Shown piece after piece: positions 7,823 to 61,419 of a stretch of 64,000 nucleotides of DNA. The notes under the pieces were generated by a model, which saw only the letters and a list, made by a program, of their open reading frames with translations, did no database searches and was not told where the DNA came from. The translations under genes and the position numbers were made by a program. This DNA is from a virus: the IMG/VR virus record IMGVR_UViG_3300045391_003842, positions 1 to 64,000 of that record; one strand, 5' to 3'. The first letter of the stretch is position 1. The number at the start of each line of letters is the position of its first letter.

Positions 7823-10560
7823 TGGGCGCGATAGCGGATCTCATCCGGGCCGGCGTCAGTCGGGACATCGTTGTCCCGATCATCCCGTGGGATATGAGCC
7901 TGCACGGCGACGGCGAAAGCCGCGGCAAGGCGCCGGCCTATATGAACGCGGTCGGCGGTTGGACCGGACTGGATTGGATCAAAGGCGGCCTGAATGCGGA
8001 CTGGCTGCGCCGCACGGATGAGAATGGCGGCAACGCCGGCATCATCCTTTGCGCCGCGAACGGTTCAGAAAGCGACAATTTACAGTTCCTGGCTATCGAT
8101 ATCGATTTCGATAAGCGAATCGACGGCAAGGATGTGAAGTGGCGCAACGCCGTCGTCAAGCTGATGCGCGACATCATCGGCGTGGATCTCCAGGTACGCG
8201 AGACGATGGAACAGAGGTGTTTGTTCCTAGTCGGACTGCCGGCGTTTGACATTGGGGGGCCAAAGAAGAAATTCCTAATATCATGGACCGATCCGAAAAC
8301 GCCACGAACTGGTGTACCGGAAGATGTCGGGGCTTTTGAGCTACTTGCCCGTGGCCAGCAGTTTGTTGCAACAGGCAAACATTGGTCCGGAAATAGGATT
8401 CAATGGTTCAAACAGACCGCATCGGGGCCTGGGAACGAAGTCACACCAGCACCCGATATCACCGCGATTCCGGTCGCCCAGAACTACGATGAGGCGGTGA
8501 ACTGGATCGTCGCCCTGCTGGAGACGATGGCGCCGTTCGGGTTCACCTATCGCGTCATCGGCGCCCATGAAGAAGGCCAGAGCGAAGCACCTGAGTTGGC
8601 GATGCTGGCCGCACCCAGCATCGGCATGATGGTCAACCTGCTGGAGCAAACGCCGAACCCGGCCACGGTGGACCGGGACATTTACGTCAACTTCATGTTC
8701 GCGGTCGGCGGGGCTCGGGCCGGACTCAAAGAGGTCAAGGGCGCGCTGTCGTCGGAGGAAGAAATCGCCCTGGCGAATGCGATCTCCGCCTGGGCCAGCA
8801 AATGGGAAGCGCCAGCAGGCAAGACGGCCGGGTCGTTCGAGTCCGAATATCGGAAGTGGATGGACGATTTTGTCCGGCCGCGCGATGACTACTATAGCGG
8901 CTGGCGTCAGATGGCACGGTACGCGGCGCAGTTCGGCGCGCCGCATGCGCTGTTGCAGCACATCGCCAGCGAGGCAGCGCGCGACGAGTTCCAGGCCGAC
9001 AACGGCGGCCCGCCACCTGCGGACATCGTACCTGGCCCAAACGTGCTCAAGGCTGATGAGATTCAGCGCATGTCAGGCTTCGGCAATAACCTTGCCGATG
9101 AGTCCGACCAGAAGGTTGCGTTTACCATCATATCGCAACTTACCGGCTTGCTGGCGTGGGTGCCGAACCGCAATAACTGGATGGTCTGGGAAGGCCTGTC
9201 TGGTTGGCGCATGGGCGAAACCAGCAACGATATCTGCGTCAATGAGATCCGAACGCACGTTGCCGACTATGTGCTGAAGTACGGGCAGGGCAATCCGGCT
9301 ATCGGCGTCGCCGGCTGGAGCGCGTCAACCCACACGCGGATGCTATCGGCGAAGAAGGTAACAGACGTTACCAAGTTCGTGAAAGGATACCTGCACAAGT
9401 CGTCTGATGAAATCGATCTGGGCCGGGCCAAGCTGCAAACACCCATGACCATGGTGGATCTGGAAACCGGCCTGGACATCGAACTGATGCAGCGCAAAGC
9501 GTTGATGGAGACACGGGCCACCTCCGTCATCCCCAGCAAATCCAACGAGCCAACACCCTATTTCGACCGACTCGTCATGGGGCTCTGCGATGAGAACGAA
9601 GAAGTCGCCAACTGGCTTCTGCATTACATCGGCTATTGTCTGTTGGGGAACCCGCGGGAAGCCGTCTTCCTTGTCATCTACGGTTCGGGCGGCAACGGCA
9701 AGAGCACGTTCGGCAACGTCCTGACCAGAACCCTTGGCGAATACGCCGTCAGCATCGCCCCTCACGTCATCCAGGCCAACGGCAAGGACAAGCACCCGGC
9801 GTCGCTCATGAAGTTGCACGGCAAGAGGCTGGCCATCATCAGCGAGCCTGATCGCTACGTGGCTTGGGATGAGCGCGCCCTGAAGGCCTTGACCGGCGGC
9901 GATGAGATCGAAGCCCGTTGGATGCGCGCCAACCCGGTGACGTTTCGATCGAACGCCGGGCTCATAATTCTGTCCAACAACCTGCCGTCCTTCGATCGCG
10001 CGGAGCCGGCTATCCAACGCCGGTTCCGGCTGATCAAGACGGTGAGGCGCCGGACCAATTCAGAGATCATTCCAGATCTGGAAGAACGCATTTTGAAGCA
10101 GGAGTCGCCCTATGTGCTGCGACGCCTGATCAACTACGCCATGGCAGTCGGGCAGGCCGGCGCGTTGCCAATCCTGCCCACGGCGATGAGCATCTACGCC
10201 AATGAGACATTGGCCGAACACGACATGATCTTTGGCTGGCTCCAGGCAGAATGCGAGTATGGCACACCGGATACGGCCAACAGCGAGGAAGAGATCCGTG
10301 TCCTGAAAGAGCGCTGCGAGTTGTTCATCCGCCGCCGCACACAGGAACAGGGCAGTGGTTTCACCGCTGACAAGTTGAACGATGCAGAGTTCAGTGCCCG
10401 GTTGATCGGCGAAGGTATCAGCCTGAGCGACGATAAAATTTTGGACAAGAACGGCAAGCCGCGCCGCCACAGCAAAACCATTCAAACGCCAAGAGGCGCT
10501 GAGAAAGTCTATACCGCCCGTGGCGTTCGTCTCAAACTCAAACTGATGAATGCAGTATGA
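7822..10560 (+). CDS. Primase-helicase: N-terminal prim-pol-like domain, C-terminal D5/P4-type SF3 helicase
   Basis: AIDID and QFV..G.H in N-terminal part; YGSGGNGKST, LKALTGGD.I.AR, SNNLP, AIQRR. Confidence 0.9.
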   Translation: MGAIADLIRAGVSRDIVVPIIPWDMSLHGDGESRGKAPAYMNAVGGWTGLDWIKGGLNADWLRRTDENGGNAGIILCAANGSESDNLQFLAIDIDFDKRIDGKDVKWRNAVVKLMRDIIGVDLQVRETMEQRCLFLVGLPAFDIGGPKKKFLISWTDPKTPRTGVPEDVGAFELLARGQQFVATGKHWSGNRIQWFKQTASGPGNEVTPAPDITAIPVAQNYDEAVNWIVALLETMAPFGFTYRVIGAHEEGQSEAPELAMLAAPSIGMMVNLLEQTPNPATVDRDIYVNFMFAVGGARAGLKEVKGALSSEEEIALANAISAWASKWEAPAGKTAGSFESEYRKWMDDFVRPRDDYYSGWRQMARYAAQFGAPHALLQHIASEAARDEFQADNGGPPPADIVPGPNVLKADEIQRMSGFGNNLADESDQKVAFTIISQLTGLLAWVPNRNNWMVWEGLSGWRMGETSNDICVNEIRTHVADYVLKYGQGNPAIGVAGWSASTHTRMLSAKKVTDVTKFVKGYLHKSSDEIDLGRAKLQTPMTMVDLETGLDIELMQRKALMETRATSVIPSKSNEPTPYFDRLVMGLCDENEEVANWLLHYIGYCLLGNPREAVFLVIYGSGGNGKSTFGNVLTRTLGEYAVSIAPHVIQANGKDKHPASLMKLHGKRLAIISEPDRYVAWDERALKALTGGDEIEARWMRANPVTFRSNAGLIILSNNLPSFDRAEPAIQRRFRLIKTVRRRTNSEIIPDLEERILKQESPYVLRRLINYAMAVGQAGALPILPTAMSIYANETLAEHDMIFGWLQAECEYGTPDTANSEEEIRVLKERCELFIRRRTQEQGSGFTADKLNDAEFSARLIGEGISLSDDKILDKNGKPRRHSKTIQTPRGAEKVYTARGVRLKLKLMNAV

Positions 10561-49444: not shown

Positions 49445-50422
49445 CTAGGCTTGTGCGTAGTCTAGCGCCATGTCGCGCGCCTTGTTCTTTAGCTCATCCC
49501 CACGTCCGAACATGGTATTATTGAACCGATTGACGTCCGTTGTCGCGGCCGTTCCCATGGCATGGTCGGCGTACTCCGTGACAGCATTCAGCCAGCCCCA
49601 TACGGTGCCACGGACTCCGTCAAGATCAGAACCAAGCCCCTTGCCCATGAACCGTTCCAGAATGCCAGGGGTTGACTTGTCGTTAGCCGCTTCGCCTAAA
49701 AGCTTTTCGGTCATGGTTTCTGCCATATCGCCAGACAGACGGGTTTCGCCGAGGTGGCGCATTTGATCCATGAACGCGGTAAAGGTCTTAGGCGCAACGC
49801 CAAGCTTGTCCTGTATCTTGGCGATGTCAAACTTACTGCGATGGCTGATTGATACCGTGCCATCCTTGTGCTTCTCAGACAGCGCCATGGCCAGCGTGTT
49901 GGCGCATACGATCCGGGTTGACGTGTGCTTGGCAACCGTGGCCAGGGAACCATCTGCGGACGTGATAAGGCTGAGATACCCGCGCACCAAATCCCGATTG
50001 TCCAACACGGCTTGTTCGCCGATCTTGGCGCATACCAGATAACGCTTGCCACCTCCAAGAGACATCATGGTGGATATTTCCAGCCCGATGCCGCGCAATA
50101 GGTTGTCAAAGAAACCGATTATTTCAGCCGGCTGTACGATCTTGTACTTGTCAGACACAATCCCCAGATCAGCGCCGGTATCACTGCGATGCAGAACGCG
50201 CTTGTCGTCAATCGTCATGACTCGGCCTTCCGGCTGGCCAGCTACCTTGGCGCGATACACCACCCGAGAGGCTTCCACGCGCCAATCCAGACCCGCCGCT
50301 TTCTCCCATTCCGTGAGGCTTGCGCCGGCCGTCATGATCTGGCCAAGGCCGTGCCAAGGCTTATCGCCGATATAGGCCATTTCCACGGTACCATCGTTAC
50401 GCACGGTAAGGTCATGAGACAT
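49445..50422 (-). CDS. DUF932 (DUF945-like) phage/plasmid protein
   Basis: PWHGLG, AGLDW.V, LG.VS..Y..VQP, L.GG.R, DGS, R.VC.NTL, GT.WG..NAVTEY.DH, FG.G..LK. Confidence 0.9.
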   Translation of the reverse strand: MSHDLTVRNDGTVEMAYIGDKPWHGLGQIMTAGASLTEWEKAAGLDWRVEASRVVYRAKVAGQPEGRVMTIDDKRVLHRSDTGADLGIVSDKYKIVQPAEIIGFFDNLLRGIGLEISTMMSLGGGKRYLVCAKIGEQAVLDNRDLVRGYLSLITSADGSLATVAKHTSTRIVCANTLAMALSEKHKDGTVSISHRSKFDIAKIQDKLGVAPKTFTAFMDQMRHLGETRLSGDMAETMTEKLLGEAANDKSTPGILERFMGKGLGSDLDGVRGTVWGWLNAVTEYADHAMGTAATTDVNRFNNTMFGRGDELKNKARDMALDYAQA

Positions 50423-57219: not shown

Positions 57220-57771
57220 ATGCTGCACCAAAAAATAGACAGTTTCAGCGGCTACCATGATTTTCTGTCGAACTTCTTTCCCGATGATATATGGATCAAA
57301 GGAAAGGCCTACAGAACACTTGAACATGCTTTCCAGGCGGCGAAACATACTGATCCTGTATTTCAGGAACAGATACGGTTGACGCGTGAACCCGGCGCCG
57401 CGAAGCGTTTGGCGCGCTCCAAGCCGGCCCGTGACAACTGGGATTACATCAAAGTGGGCGTCATGCTGGAATTGCTGCGCATGAAGTTCGCCGATCCTCG
57501 CTTGCGGGCGATGCTGCTGGATACCGGTGATCTGTATCTGGAGGAAGGCAACACCTGGGGCGACGAGTACTGGGGCACTGTGAAGGGTGTCGGCAAGAAC
57601 ATGCTGGGGCATTTGCTGATGCAGGTTCGCAAAGAACTCAAAAAGACCAAATCAAGAACAGAGATGGAAGATCTGCTGAATCCGGCGAGCATCAAATGCG
57701 ACGACCAGAACTGTTCCAACTACAGGAACATGCGCGGCGGGTGCGATCTCTGCGGCGCGCCCTGTCTCTAG
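57220..57771 (+). CDS. NADAR (YbiA-like) family protein
   Basis: FLSNF, EH.FQA.K, AK.L.R, W...K..VM......KF, LL.TG...L.E...W.D..WG, G.N.LG..LM.VR. Confidence 0.92.
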   Translation: MLHQKIDSFSGYHDFLSNFFPDDIWIKGKAYRTLEHAFQAAKHTDPVFQEQIRLTREPGAAKRLARSKPARDNWDYIKVGVMLELLRMKFADPRLRAMLLDTGDLYLEEGNTWGDEYWGTVKGVGKNMLGHLLMQVRKELKKTKSRTEMEDLLNPASIKCDDQNCSNYRNMRGGCDLCGAPCL

Positions 57772-58137
57772 GCGATTTCATTTGTATCGACCGCGCGACC
57801 AGCGCTATGGATAGAGCGTCGGTTGCGCGGTACGGAAATGATGACGCTCGCTGAACACATCCTGGTATGTTCTGGGTTGGTTATCTGCATTCTGGCCATG
57901 ATCGTGGTGGTGCGACGATGAGTTTTCCTGTTCCGCCGGGCGGCCGGACGACCAAAGAGCGCATGCGTCAATTATTGGACGAGGCGAAAGCCAACGTCAA
58001 ACGCCTGGATTCCTGTCCAGGACCACACGATTTCCGACAAATCTCCGCGAAAGTCTTTGGTGGGCGCTGGCAATGCGCGTCCTGCGGTGGTGAAGTCGAT
58101 ACCGTAGCTTACGCGTGGTATATGAAAGGACTGATCC

Positions 58138-59274
58138 ATGGACGATCTACCCTCTCCAGCGCCGGACGGCCCGCGTGCTCGTCTGACGGAGACCTACCGT
58201 CAGGATTTGATGGGTGTGGCGCGGACGATGAAGATCCATGCCCAGCAACTGCTGACGAAGGCGGAAGCTGCGGAGCGGATGCTGACGGAGGTGATGTCTG
58301 AGTCGCGGCCGATCGGCGTTTCGCATGAACAGTACATGGCGGCCTGGAACAGCCGCATGCATGACGTTCTGCACGCGGCCGATCGCATGGCGGATATCGA
58401 CATCCCGGAGCCACCGGAACTGCTGACAGGCAAGCATGGCAGGATCATCGTCATGGATGACCTGGGTGCTGGGGTCGCGGTGGCGTCGCACACCCATCCG
58501 ATGCCGGGCGACTATACGCAACTGGAGGCCTACGCCATGACCTGTCCGATGCGCCCGCGTTTGGCAGGGCTCGCGCCGTCGCCGGTCTTCAAGAATGCCA
58601 GTGGTGAGCGCCTTGGCAAGCCCAACGAAGAACCAAGGCCGGATGAAATCTGCGTCGGCTATGTGCCGGTAACCCATACGGGCCGGTTCCAGCCGCAGAA
58701 ACTGAGCCACGATGGCAAAAAACTGTCATTGGCGGCGATGTACGGCGGCAAGCTGCATGAAAACTTGGTGCAGAGTTTCAGCCAATTCGTCGGCATGGAC
58801 GTGAATGACGCCAAGGTGCAGATCACGGCGGAGACTGTCGCGTTGGTCAGCAAGATGCAGGAAGACATGATGACTACGCTGGGCGTGGCGCCACACTGGG
58901 ACATCCCTGACCAACGCGTCATGGTGGTGGCGCCCGGTACGGCCGGCGCTTGCACCGACGCCGAGCGTGAGCAGATCGAACGTTCTATGGCGGATCCGGC
59001 CATGCTGGAGCCCGAGCGCGCCCGGCTCGAGTCGCTGGGGTTCAAGGCGGCGCCGGTACCGACATCGGGCACCACGCGAATCGCGGACATGGACGTGACG
59101 CAGCGCCTGCGAGAGATCCAGGCCGATCGCGAGGCCGCGGAGAAGCAGACGGCACTGCCGGCGGAGGATTGGCGGCACAACGGCGCGTGTCCGATCTGCA
59201 AGACGGGCAAGGTGCGCTATGACACCTCGTACACCCGGCTTGGCTGCGAGGATTGCGGCGCCCAACCCACCTGA
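58138..59274 (+). CDS. Mosaic hypothetical protein with C-terminal zinc ribbon
   Basis: 378-aa ORF, AAGGA RBS, CPIC...CEDC; contains short PolA-like motifs. Confidence 0.65.
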   Translation: MDDLPSPAPDGPRARLTETYRQDLMGVARTMKIHAQQLLTKAEAAERMLTEVMSESRPIGVSHEQYMAAWNSRMHDVLHAADRMADIDIPEPPELLTGKHGRIIVMDDLGAGVAVASHTHPMPGDYTQLEAYAMTCPMRPRLAGLAPSPVFKNASGERLGKPNEEPRPDEICVGYVPVTHTGRFQPQKLSHDGKKLSLAAMYGGKLHENLVQSFSQFVGMDVNDAKVQITAETVALVSKMQEDMMTTLGVAPHWDIPDQRVMVVAPGTAGACTDAEREQIERSMADPAMLEPERARLESLGFKAAPVPTSGTTRIADMDVTQRLREIQADREAAEKQTALPAEDWRHNGACPICKTGKVRYDTSYTRLGCEDCGAQPT

Positions 59275-59331: not shown

Positions 59332-59793
59332 ATGCGCCCTAGACTCTACCTTGCCGGCCCGATCGGCGGCGAATCCTACTCGGCCGCGACCGATTGGCGC
59401 GTGGCCACCACATCGGTGCTGGATGGCGTCATTGACTGCTTCTCGCCGATGCGCGGCTTTACCCATCTGAAGGGTGAGCAGTCCATCTCCGACACCGTCA
59501 GCCTGAGGGCGCCGCGCGTGCACACCACCAAGGGTGTGATCAGTCGCGACCACAACGACGTCCTGCGCGCGGACTGCCTGCTGGTGCGCCTGCATGGGGC
59601 GAAGAAGATCTCCACGGGCACGGCGATTGAACTGGCCTGGGCCTATCACCTGCACAAGCCGGCGGTGGTGTGGATCGAAGACGGCGACGAGAATATCCAC
59701 GCTCAGCATCCGATGCTGGTGGAGACGTTCCGCTGGCGCACGCCGTCCATCTCCGAGGCGATTGAGATCGTCAGAGGGGTTCTCCTGCCATGA
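59332..59793 (+). CDS. Nucleoside 2-deoxyribosyltransferase-like protein
   Basis: YLAGPI, SP.R, RD...V..AD..L, S.GT..E..WA....KP. Confidence 0.85.
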   Translation: MRPRLYLAGPIGGESYSAATDWRVATTSVLDGVIDCFSPMRGFTHLKGEQSISDTVSLRAPRVHTTKGVISRDHNDVLRADCLLVRLHGAKKISTGTAIELAWAYHLHKPAVVWIEDGDENIHAQHPMLVETFRWRTPSISEAIEIVRGVLLP

Positions 59794-60120
59794 GTTTCAT
59801 CACGCTGTTTAAGGCAGACCGCGTGAAGCTGGTCACGACGCGGGCGGTCCTCATTCAGTATGACGGGCTCCGTGAGATCTGGATTCCGCGGTCTGTCATC
59901 GAAAACGGCGACACGATCGCGAAAGACGATGAAGACGTTGTTGTGCAGGAGTGGTTTGCCGAACGAGAAGGTTTGGAATGAAACTACCACAACGCCATCA
60001 CAAGTATGACCTGTACCCGGCCGATCCTTACGCGGCCGTGGCGCAGTTGGTCATCTGTGTTAACGTTGTGGTTTTGATTGTAATGGCTTTGATCGGCGTT
60101 TGGAAATTGGCGGGTGGATA

Positions 60121-61419
60121 ATGTCGGACTGTTCTATCTGTGGGCGCCCCCAGTTCGACACACCGAGTGGCGTCACCTGTGAAAATGGACATGGAGGTGC
60201 ACCTTCCGATGGCTATGAACGCTTTGATGGGATACCTGACGCTGGGCCTGATGACATGCCTGTCGCTGCTGATTGGGATGGAGGTCGCGGTGCGTCGCCG
60301 CCGCTTGCGCCCGGCAAGCTACCGCCGCAAAGGTCGCGCGATCCGCTGAGCAACATCGTCCTTTCGGATGAACAGCAAGAGCTATACGACAACATTGACC
60401 GGTTCATCGGCGATCCGTTTGCTGGCGACGTCTATCACTATGATGGGCTCGCCGGCACCGGCAAATCTGTCGTGTTGGCCAAGGCCGGGCAGAACAACCC
60501 TGGCTGCATGATGGTGGCGCTGTCCGGCCGGGCGGCGTCGCTCCTGCATCAAAAGTCAGGACTAAGCACGTCAACCATCCACGCGGCGATCTACAAGCTG
60601 ATGCGTGAGATCGAATTTGACAACGGCAAGCGCCAGATGGAATGGCGCAGCGCGCATAACGACGGCGCACTGTCCGGCGTGACGTTCCTGCTGGACGAAA
60701 AGTCCATGATCGGGCACCGCATCGCCCGCGACATCCTGCGTACGGGCGCGCGGATCGTGGCGGCCGGCGATCCAGGCCAGTTGCCGCCGATCCAGGATCA
60801 GCAGTACTTCGTCAACCCGGATTTCACCCTGCGCCAGATCCACCGTCAGGCGCTGGAAAGCCCGATCGTGCGGCAGGCGCACCGGGTGCGGGCCGGCGAA
60901 CGCTACCAGAACGATGGGTCGAACTTCCGCGTCGTGGATCGATTGCCGCGTGACGAGTTGATGCAGGCCGACATGGTGCTCTGCTGGAAGAACACCACGC
61001 GCGTTGAGATCACCAAGGTGATCAGATCCATGAAGGGTCTGGCCAAAAACTATCCGCGGGCTGGCGAGTTCGTCATGTGCCTGAAGAATGCGCCTGACTA
61101 TGGCCTGTTCAACGGCGCCGTCTATACGCTGACACGAGACTTTAACAACGGCGACAATGTCATCTGGCTGGACTACGAAGGAGAGGAAATCTACGTTCCG
61201 AACGTCAAGTTTGAAGGCATGGTCAACACGGTGCCGGTTGGTGACGTGGTAACGACTAGCTTCACGTTTGGTTACGTGTACACCGTTCACAAGGCTCAGG
61301 GCTCCGAAGCGAAGAGTGTAGTACTCGTGGATGAGTATGCTATGCCTGATTTCGCGATCGAGTGGCGTTATACGGCCATTACGAGAGCGCAAGAACGTAT
61401 CACGATTATCCCACACTGA
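60121..61419 (+). CDS. RecD/Dda-like SF1 helicase
   Basis: GLAGTGKS, TIH..IY, LDE.SM, GDP.QLPP, L.QIHRQA, Y.YTVHKAQGSE, YTAITRA. Confidence 0.92.
   Translation: MSDCSICGRPQFDTPSGVTCENGHGGAPSDGYERFDGIPDAGPDDMPVAADWDGGRGASPPLAPGKLPPQRSRDPLSNIVLSDEQQELYDNIDRFIGDPFAGDVYHYDGLAGTGKSVVLAKAGQNNPGCMMVALSGRAASLLHQKSGLSTSTIHAAIYKLMREIEFDNGKRQMEWRSAHNDGALSGVTFLLDEKSMIGHRIARDILRTGARIVAAGDPGQLPPIQDQQYFVNPDFTLRQIHRQALESPIVRQAHRVRAGERYQNDGSNFRVVDRLPRDELMQADMVLCWKNTTRVEITKVIRSMKGLAKNYPRAGEFVMCLKNAPDYGLFNGAVYTLTRDFNNGDNVIWLDYEGEEIYVPNVKFEGMVNTVPVGDVVTTSFTFGYVYTVHKAQGSEAKSVVLVDEYAMPDFAIEWRYTAITRAQERITIIPH

Follow-up and report, generated by a model that had tools for sequence, protein, structure and literature searches.

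In the first 64 kb of the 115,788-base IMG/VR virus record IMGVR_UViG_3300045391_003842 (CheckV completeness 76%), a stretch of 64,000 nucleotides with a GC content of ~60% that we refer to as the window, we analyzed the plus-strand open reading frame (ORF) P0001, whose product carries sequence of a family-A DNA polymerase (PolA). P0001 appears to be a chimeric orphan composed of a helical N-terminal region of ~90 residues, a PolA remnant and a C-terminal zinc ribbon. Our favored explanation, to which we assign a probability of about two in three, is that it represents an old, internally deleted and catalytically dead PolA remnant that lies in an orphan gene, stems from a lineage other than that of the resident polA and has been joined at its N- and C-terminal ends to unrelated sequence. 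An earlier reading of the same DNA (hereafter the original prediction) had described this ORF as a patchwork of polymerase motif fragments, out of order, lacking their connecting scaffold and unmatched at the DNA level to the resident polA, and had considered recombination or homing debris as well as a decoy as its origin. That P0001 contains family-A polymerase sequence, that this sequence is not a product of chance and that the resident polA did not serve as its template all held up in our analysis, the scrambling did not.

The strongest signal in P0001 is the segment corresponding to helix Q of family-A polymerases (Table 1). We gathered 120 relatives of the resident PolA, aligned 55 of them (alignment A1) and scored P0001 with a position-specific matrix derived from this alignment. 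The helix-Q block reached 30.6 bits, a score attained by none of 20000 shuffled sequences, and the best score found elsewhere in the same genome, across ~131,000 six-frame residues, was 11.4 bits. When all 703 windows of 10 residues in the PolA profile were scanned, helix Q was again the top outlier with a z-score of 7–8 and motif A ranked second, with several non-collinear false positives at the level of motifs B and C. P0001 possesses the helix-Q signature YGGxxxENxxQ and has lost the A-R-D that follows it. A 47-residue query around helix Q, run by tblastn over 2.3 Gb of phage DNA, returned 19 weak matches, of which at least 12 lie within annotated DNA polymerase genes from several unrelated phage groups. 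On the level of the whole protein, standard tools hardly register this signal: a profile of the 55 aligned relatives matched P0001 with 3.2 bits in hmmsearch (E 0.001 for a single sequence) and with a P of 0.0045 in hhalign. The helix Q of P0001 is of PolA origin, and it is the only piece of the protein that is individually robust.

All five strings highlighted by the original prediction are present in P0001 at the positions it gave, and they fared unequally against the PolA profile and shuffled controls. The motif-A-like octamer GDYTQLEA retains the catalytic Asp and Glu and carries a Tyr in place of the family-invariant Arg that comes next; a second BLASTP segment, covering residues 381–477 of the Pseudomonas phage KPP25 DNA polymerase, also supports it. 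With a p of about 0.002–0.003 per protein the support for motif A is moderate, and it drops to suggestive once corrected for all windows. The assignment of motif B (R-x3-K-x7-YG) is ambiguous, as P0001 possesses K194-x7-Y202-G203 without the Arg, and this stretch overlaps helix Q; its block p of 0.0005–0.008 is not independent of the helix-Q score because the YGG is common to both. The GK-x7-YGG stretch aligns equally well to two GK-x7-YG segments of the KPP25 polymerase, one being motif B and the other preceding helix Q. A strict motif C (HDE), which holds the second catalytic Asp, scored at chance level in P0001 (block p 0.76). In the motif-C-equivalent region the triad is incomplete and corresponds, depending on the aligner (BLASTP against KPP25 or a MAFFT alignment, A4), to N223-D224-A225 or to T230-A231-E232.

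Two of the five strings had to be discarded. THTGRF is indistinguishable from chance as PolA motif 2 (block p 0.49), and its counterpart in the KPP25 polymerase is a non-conserved TGR of the hairpin that precedes helix Q. Neither motif 2 (TGR..SS...NLQN.P) nor the thumb gave a signal in P0001 against PolA residues 1–400 (p 0.55). The stretch that had been likened to a terminase Walker B segment we likewise judge to be a chance resemblance: in the four hidden Markov model (HMM) libraries Pfam, PHROGs, NCBIfam and PADLOC, no P-loop, AAA or terminase family matched P0001 at E≤1. The GK and the hhhhDD in LTGKHGRIIVMDD lie just 3 residues apart, an arrangement unlike that of any known P-loop nucleoside triphosphatase.

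The pieces that are supported occur in the order in which they are found in PolA, namely motif A, possibly motif B, helix Q, the motif-C region and the C-terminal AP.W..P element. This order is borne out by a gapped alignment of residues 161–257 of P0001 to residues 523–641, the last 120, of the KPP25 DNA polymerase (YP_009030597.1), with 26% identity; the aligned path starts in the hairpin that leads up to helix Q, continues over helix Q itself and the strand of motif C, and includes the AP.W..(D)LP element at the C-terminus. The alignment scored 34 bits (pairwise E 8e-6), which was reached by 0 of 3000 shuffles and by none of the 218 further long ORFs in the six frames of the genome; when we corrected for KPP25 being the top scorer of a 121-PolA panel, a single one of 400 shuffles reached it (p about 0.005). 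With residues 110–270 (161 residues) as query, six of the seven matched records were polymerases, aligned over a long gapped path. The region after helix Q, compared on its own with a panel of PolA C-termini, matched at the expected location (p 0.023), and further PolAs align in order either to residues 94–226, along a path from motif A to motif B, or to residues 155–257, along the C-terminal path. The pieces of P0001 are collinear with PolA and not scrambled.

This collinearity bears directly on the idea, central to the original prediction, that P0001 is a scrambled patchwork of captured snippets serving as a protein- or DNA-level decoy for sensors of polymerase or terminase. It is true that only the conserved motifs can be recognized and that, in the family of the small phage ORF P0122 described below, a TGR-type string comes after helix Q rather than before motif A. 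Survival of the motifs alone is, however, expected of any old remnant, as only conserved positions still score after long divergence. The supported pieces are joined by a significant, if weak, connecting alignment of 97 residues, and THTGRF, the sole piece that would be out of order, and the Walker-B stretch are both attributable to chance, with no terminase signal remaining. At the nucleotide level P0001 and the resident polA are dissimilar, as the original prediction had correctly noted: blastn gave no match, and the comparable segments share 11 of 48, 18 of 33 and 19 of 39 bases. A DNA-level decoy is thus unlikely, a decoy role for P0001 in general finds no support, and we regard the patchwork explanation as very improbable. 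The alternative wording of the original prediction, recombination debris, comes close to our own reading.

The remnant reading is further characterized by what P0001 has lost. Neither the exonuclease domain nor the thumb is present, and the fingers are reduced by ~115 residues. Motif A and helix Q are separated by 69 residues in P0001 as compared to ~185 in PolAs, so that the larger part of the fingers must have been removed. P0001 also lacks the invariant Arg that follows motif A and the Arg-Asp pair of helix Q, and since the HDE triad is broken as well, it cannot act as a polymerase. We propose that residues ~120–257 descended from the polymerase domain of a Pol I-type enzyme of a lineage other than that of the resident polA. 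A second, redundant polA gene would have undergone an internal deletion, and the deletion junction may fall in the (Y/F)GG common to motif B and helix Q. The dual fit of the GK-x7-YGG stretch, to motif B as well as to the segment preceding helix Q, is what would be expected if a deletion had joined the two. Gene remodeling would then have connected the remnant to the helical N-terminal region and the zinc ribbon, and the product may persist as a non-enzymatic protein, a notion that we base on the survival of its His-bearing helix-Q peptide in further phage ORFs of small size (see below).

P0001 is a real gene. Its GC content at codon positions 1, 2 and 3 (0.66, 0.47 and 0.78) resembles that of confident genes of the same genome, and a codon log-likelihood trained on these genes is positive for the P0001 frame in all windows of 150 nucleotides and negative for the other five frames. 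The ATG at 58138 is preceded at a distance of 7 nucleotides by a ribosome-binding site, and two internal ATGs at 58279 and 58294 have a GGAG just 2–3 nucleotides upstream. The first 164 nucleotides of P0001 (58138–58301) overlap with the preceding zinc-ribbon ORF, whose match to phrog_9844 is limited to its first ~90 residues (it ends at residue 89) and whose tail is of low complexity; within the overlap, codon statistics favor the frame of P0001. No internal or dispersed repeats, including repeats resembling clustered regularly interspaced short palindromic repeats (CRISPR), were found when the ORF was compared by blastn with the whole genome.

At full length P0001 is an orphan. Its only full-length match was itself, whether we searched 5.8 billion clusters, 1.84 billion representative proteins (exhaustive phmmer) or 50,697 phage records (tblastn and megablast). 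The four HMM libraries named above contained no significant match, and the two best ones, both weak, were the zinc ribbon and phrog_7766, annotated as 'DNA polymerase' (E 0.25, residues 190–217). No defense or anti-defense model of PADLOC-DB matched P0001. Single-protein scans of IMG/VR did not reveal relatives of the two genes that neighbor P0001, and the relatives of the resident PolA in IMG/VR are 30–35% identical and come from genomes of ~40 kb.

Structure prediction assigned a fold with some confidence solely to the C-terminal zinc ribbon. In the AlphaFold2 model the predicted local distance difference test score (pLDDT) is ~76–79 at residues 350–378, below 50 for most of the remainder and 39 overall, and the ESM Atlas model has a pLDDT of 0.45. 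A sequence search of the PDB returned spurious matches to designed proteins only.

Several of these results count against a PolA remnant. Outside helix Q, the matches are weak everywhere in P0001 when taken singly; motifs A and B fail a correction for all 703 windows, the stretches between the motifs are at chance level against the PolA profile, and the motif-C equivalent is placed differently by the two aligners. P0001 does not match PF00476 at E≤1 and hence stays below its gathering score of 34.3 bits. The KPP25 polymerase was chosen as the best among many PolAs. Neither AlphaFold2 nor ESM Atlas produced a confident fold for the PolA-like part, so that a palm-like structure could not be seen in it, and P0001 lacks close orthologs from which selection on it could be gauged. 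Permissive chaining of the other pieces around a fixed helix Q revealed no collinear excess (p 0.53), a test that was uninformative because short high-scoring triplets swamped it.

The failed correction of motifs A and B and the lack of a significant match in curated HMM libraries would also suit a chance resemblance over-read by a pattern-seeking reader. Moreover, some exact matches to YGGxxxENxxQ are expected over very many windows, and several of our own matches look like such cases (see below). Chance does not account for a 30-bit helix Q and a 34-bit gapped alignment that 3000 shuffles failed to equal, for the enrichment of PolA genes among the weak tblastn matches, or for the identical 12-residue peptide in the phage ORF P0122, which there too is accompanied by a motif-A-like string upstream. 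We therefore consider this explanation highly improbable, and a remnant of PolA remains our favored explanation.

We searched for relatives with degenerate DNA patterns of the helix-Q peptide, using a strict pattern in IMG/VR, a relaxed one in a metagenome collection and a still looser one; judged by the information content of the patterns, about one chance match is expected per large collection. The strict pattern identified one IMG/VR contig, L082, on which the peptide lies inside P0122, a non-polymerase ORF of 232 residues (L082:11155–11853). The helix-Q 12-mer of P0122 is identical to that of P0001; codons 1–6 are the same in both ORFs and each of codons 7–12 has a different third base, which shows that the 12-mer was not recently transferred as DNA. 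P0122 has two homologs, of which P0123 has kept the motif and P0124, a full-length homolog, has lost it and kept the C-terminal domain. In both P0122 and P0123 a motif-A-like string is located 35–40 residues upstream of the peptide and is detected by HMMER as a weak separate domain. The match of the P0001 peptide to P0122 and P0123 extends over 21–23 residues with 61% and 76% identity, respectively. The full form of P0123 (L087:984–1730) is identical to residues 193–213 of P0001 at 16 of 21 positions, among them 8 of the 10 that the pattern leaves free, and has a significant alignment to PolA that begins at motif A (0 of 120 shuffles). Further PolA-like pieces in the P0122 family, such as an 18.7-bit match in P0124, failed a correction for ~150,000 comparisons and were dropped.

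The relaxed pattern matched contigs L084–L087 of the metagenome collection. The ORFs on L085 (5669–6088, minus strand) and L086 are significant, collinear C-terminal fragments of PolA without HDE, as judged by tblastn and BLAST against the PolA panel. The match on L084 is probably due to chance, and the same probably applies to L088, the sole match in the genome collection, and to five IMG/VR matches of the looser pattern. The feature that P0001 shares with P0122, P0123 and the ORFs on L085 and L086 is the helix-Q peptide with a His directly before EN. In PolAs this residue is T, C, V, A or S; a His was found in 0 of 139 PolA helix-Q motifs and was absent from every full-length PolA among the pattern matches. 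In other respects the ORFs differ from P0001: they comprise 117 to ~250 residues as opposed to 378, the P0122 family has a conserved C-terminal domain that P0001 lacks, the zinc ribbon is found in P0001 alone, and neither the neighboring genes nor the remainder of each protein shows any relationship to its counterpart at the P0001 locus.

The strongly conserved C-terminal domain of the P0122 family (P0122, the L087 protein and P0124) spans ~65 residues, starts with GHPFARD and is modeled by AlphaFold2 as a beta-sheet with a helix at a pLDDT of 70–80; we found no match for it in Pfam, PHROGs or the PDB. Taken as a whole, the AlphaFold2 prediction for the family (pLDDT 47) is too poor for a comparison of folds. 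The L086 ORF (L086:2136–2486, minus strand) is open at its 5′ end and starts with a stretch resembling a twin-arginine signal (RRGFLKALG...), which may be an artefact of a frame left open at the contig end.

These ORFs raise the question if P0001 and its His-bearing counterparts form an old, selected family of dead PolA-derived proteins, that is, a reused functional module, which would not exclude their being remnants. Such a module would act non-enzymatically, by binding primer-template DNA or a replisome partner or as bait or decoy for a polymerase-targeting factor. The retention of the His-bearing peptide with third-position but without amino-acid changes suggests some constraint. The intact frame and gene-like codon use of P0001, the free positions conserved in L087, the derived His foreign to PolAs and the fact that the peptide has outlived its surroundings point in the same direction. 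On the other hand, the relatives were ascertained through a pattern that requires the peptide, so that its conservation is in part a matter of ascertainment, and the loss of the motif from P0124, with the C-terminal domain retained, implies that this protein can do without the peptide. P0001 belongs neither to PHROG 12116 ('mini Pol I' proteins), which did not appear among its PHROG matches at E≤1, nor to any defense or anti-defense model. Reuse is thus a possible but tentative extension of the remnant explanation. Slightly less likely is the wider notion of an undescribed, fast-evolving phage family derived from a fingerless, dead Pol I core, whose His-bearing helix Q would have been retained by selection in otherwise unrelated genes and whose members would function non-enzymatically, either at replication forks or as a lure for a polymerase-targeting factor.

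Inteins are generally located in conserved motifs (PMC2814812). In close relatives of the resident PolA, canonical inteins interrupt motif B (A481|C482) and helix Q (N617|residue 618); the intein-bearing relatives are among P0007, P0009, P0011, P0013, P0014, P0071 and P0079, and the inteins at the two sites have similar C-termini. Both are absent from the resident PolA. Its helix Q, YGGFWMQNGTQ, is atypical in having a Gln for Glu616 and a Gly at the +1 position and might be a poor homing site. The two intein-bearing motifs are those that abut in P0001, which would be in line with homing debris, i.e. with extein tracts moved ectopically by an intein or by a free-standing homing endonuclease directed at motifs of polA. 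By eye, the 12.8-kb contig L085 furthermore contains a GIY-YIG-like ORF with NUMOD-like repeats and two HNH-like ORFs, at 2433–2987 and 8242–9043 (both minus strand); these share the contig with the ORF for a PolA C-terminal fragment, which hints at homing-endonuclease traffic near such fragments. Against homing debris, neither P0001 nor the neighboring ORFs gave an intein, Hint, LAGLIDADG, HNH or GIY-YIG signal in Pfam and PHROGs; the true inteins of the relatives were easily recognized. The putative junction falls within the YGG of P0001 and coincides with neither of the intein sites, the PolA-like tract continues for ~100 residues past these sites, and no nucleotide similarity exists to any polA compared. 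We consider homing debris improbable as the origin of P0001, and an internal deletion in a second polA gene remains the more plausible route to it.

P0001 lies 50 kb away from the replication module of the genome, amid a plus-strand series of small genes (Table 1). The NADAR-domain gene, the deoxyribosyltransferase-like gene and the Dda-like helicase around it suggest an accessory region devoted to nucleotide metabolism or counter-defense. Farther upstream, a DUF932 gene (49445–50422, minus strand; E 1.5e-43) is located just ahead of a strand-switch region at ~50.4–51.5 kb.

Table 1. Positions of P0001, its sequence elements and the surrounding genes within the window
Feature	Position	Strand	Residues of P0001	Evidence or remark
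Replication module	1–11.7 kb			Contains DUF2800 nuclease, SNF2 helicase, 712-aa family-A polymerase, DUF5906 primase and methylase
Resident PolA, intein-free, 712 aa	5684..7822	+		PF00476, E 1.9e-11; comparator
NADAR-domain gene	57220–57771	+		E 5.6e-22
Zinc-ribbon ORF, phrog_9844	57867–58301	+		PHROG match
Ribosome-binding site AAGGA	58126..58130	+		Read from sequence
ORF P0001, 378 aa including stop	58138..59274	+		Coding statistics and ribosome-binding site
'Walker B-like' stretch LTGKHGRIIVMDD	58423..58461	+	96–108	Judged chance
Motif-A-like octamer GDYTQLEA	58507..58530	+	124–131	Block p 0.002; window scan z 3.8, p 0.003
C-terminal PolA-like region	58618..58908	+	161–257	Gapped, in-order BLASTP to KPP25
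THTGRF	58672..58689	+	179–184	Motif 2 block p 0.49
GK-x7-YGG stretch GKKLSLAAMYGG	58714..58749	+	193–204	Motif-B end or pre-helix-Q segment; possible deletion junction
Helix-Q signature MYGGKLHENLVQ, contains YGGKLHENLVQ	58738..58773	+	201–212	Matches YGGxxxENxVQ
Motif-C-equivalent region	58789..58857	+	218–240	BLASTP to KPP25; MAFFT alignment A4
C-terminal M...AP.W..(D)LP match	58861..58908	+	242–257	BLASTP to KPP25, PolA C-termini panel, MAFFT A4
Zinc ribbon CxxC...CxxC	59188..59259	+	351–374	Pfam Zn_Ribbon_TF, weak, E 0.24
Nucleoside 2-deoxyribosyltransferase-like gene	59332–59793	+		E 2e-9
Dda-like helicase	60100–61419	+

If our reading is correct, P0001 exemplifies one way in which an orphan gene can originate: a redundant replication gene shrinks and is fused into a new frame until only its most conserved helix is recognizable. 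Remnants of this kind evade curated HMM libraries. Should the His-bearing peptide truly be selected in several ORFs of unrelated kinds, this would be a further hint that non-catalytic polymerase fragments are retained by phages for a purpose; if it is not under selection, the P0001 locus is ordinary mosaic debris. In our literature search we found no paper that describes stand-alone mini-proteins made of phage polymerase fragments.

Compared with the family-A phage polymerases (PF00476, the resident PolA and KPP25), P0001 has a motif-A-like octamer, YGGxxxENxVQ and AP.W..P in common, in the same order. It differs from them in the absence of exonuclease, thumb and motif 2, in the incomplete HDE and the lost Arg residues, in the His that replaces a small residue before EN, and in its N- and C-terminal parts, which are unrelated to PolA. 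Chimeric genes are known to arise by illegitimate recombination in mosaic phage genomes. P0001 is similar to these in that an otherwise unrelated ORF of an accessory region harbors part of a conserved replication gene. Unlike in typical chimeric genes, no donor could be identified at the DNA level, its fragment is old, as the third codon positions that differ across the second half of the shared peptide indicate, and this fragment recurs in unrelated contigs.

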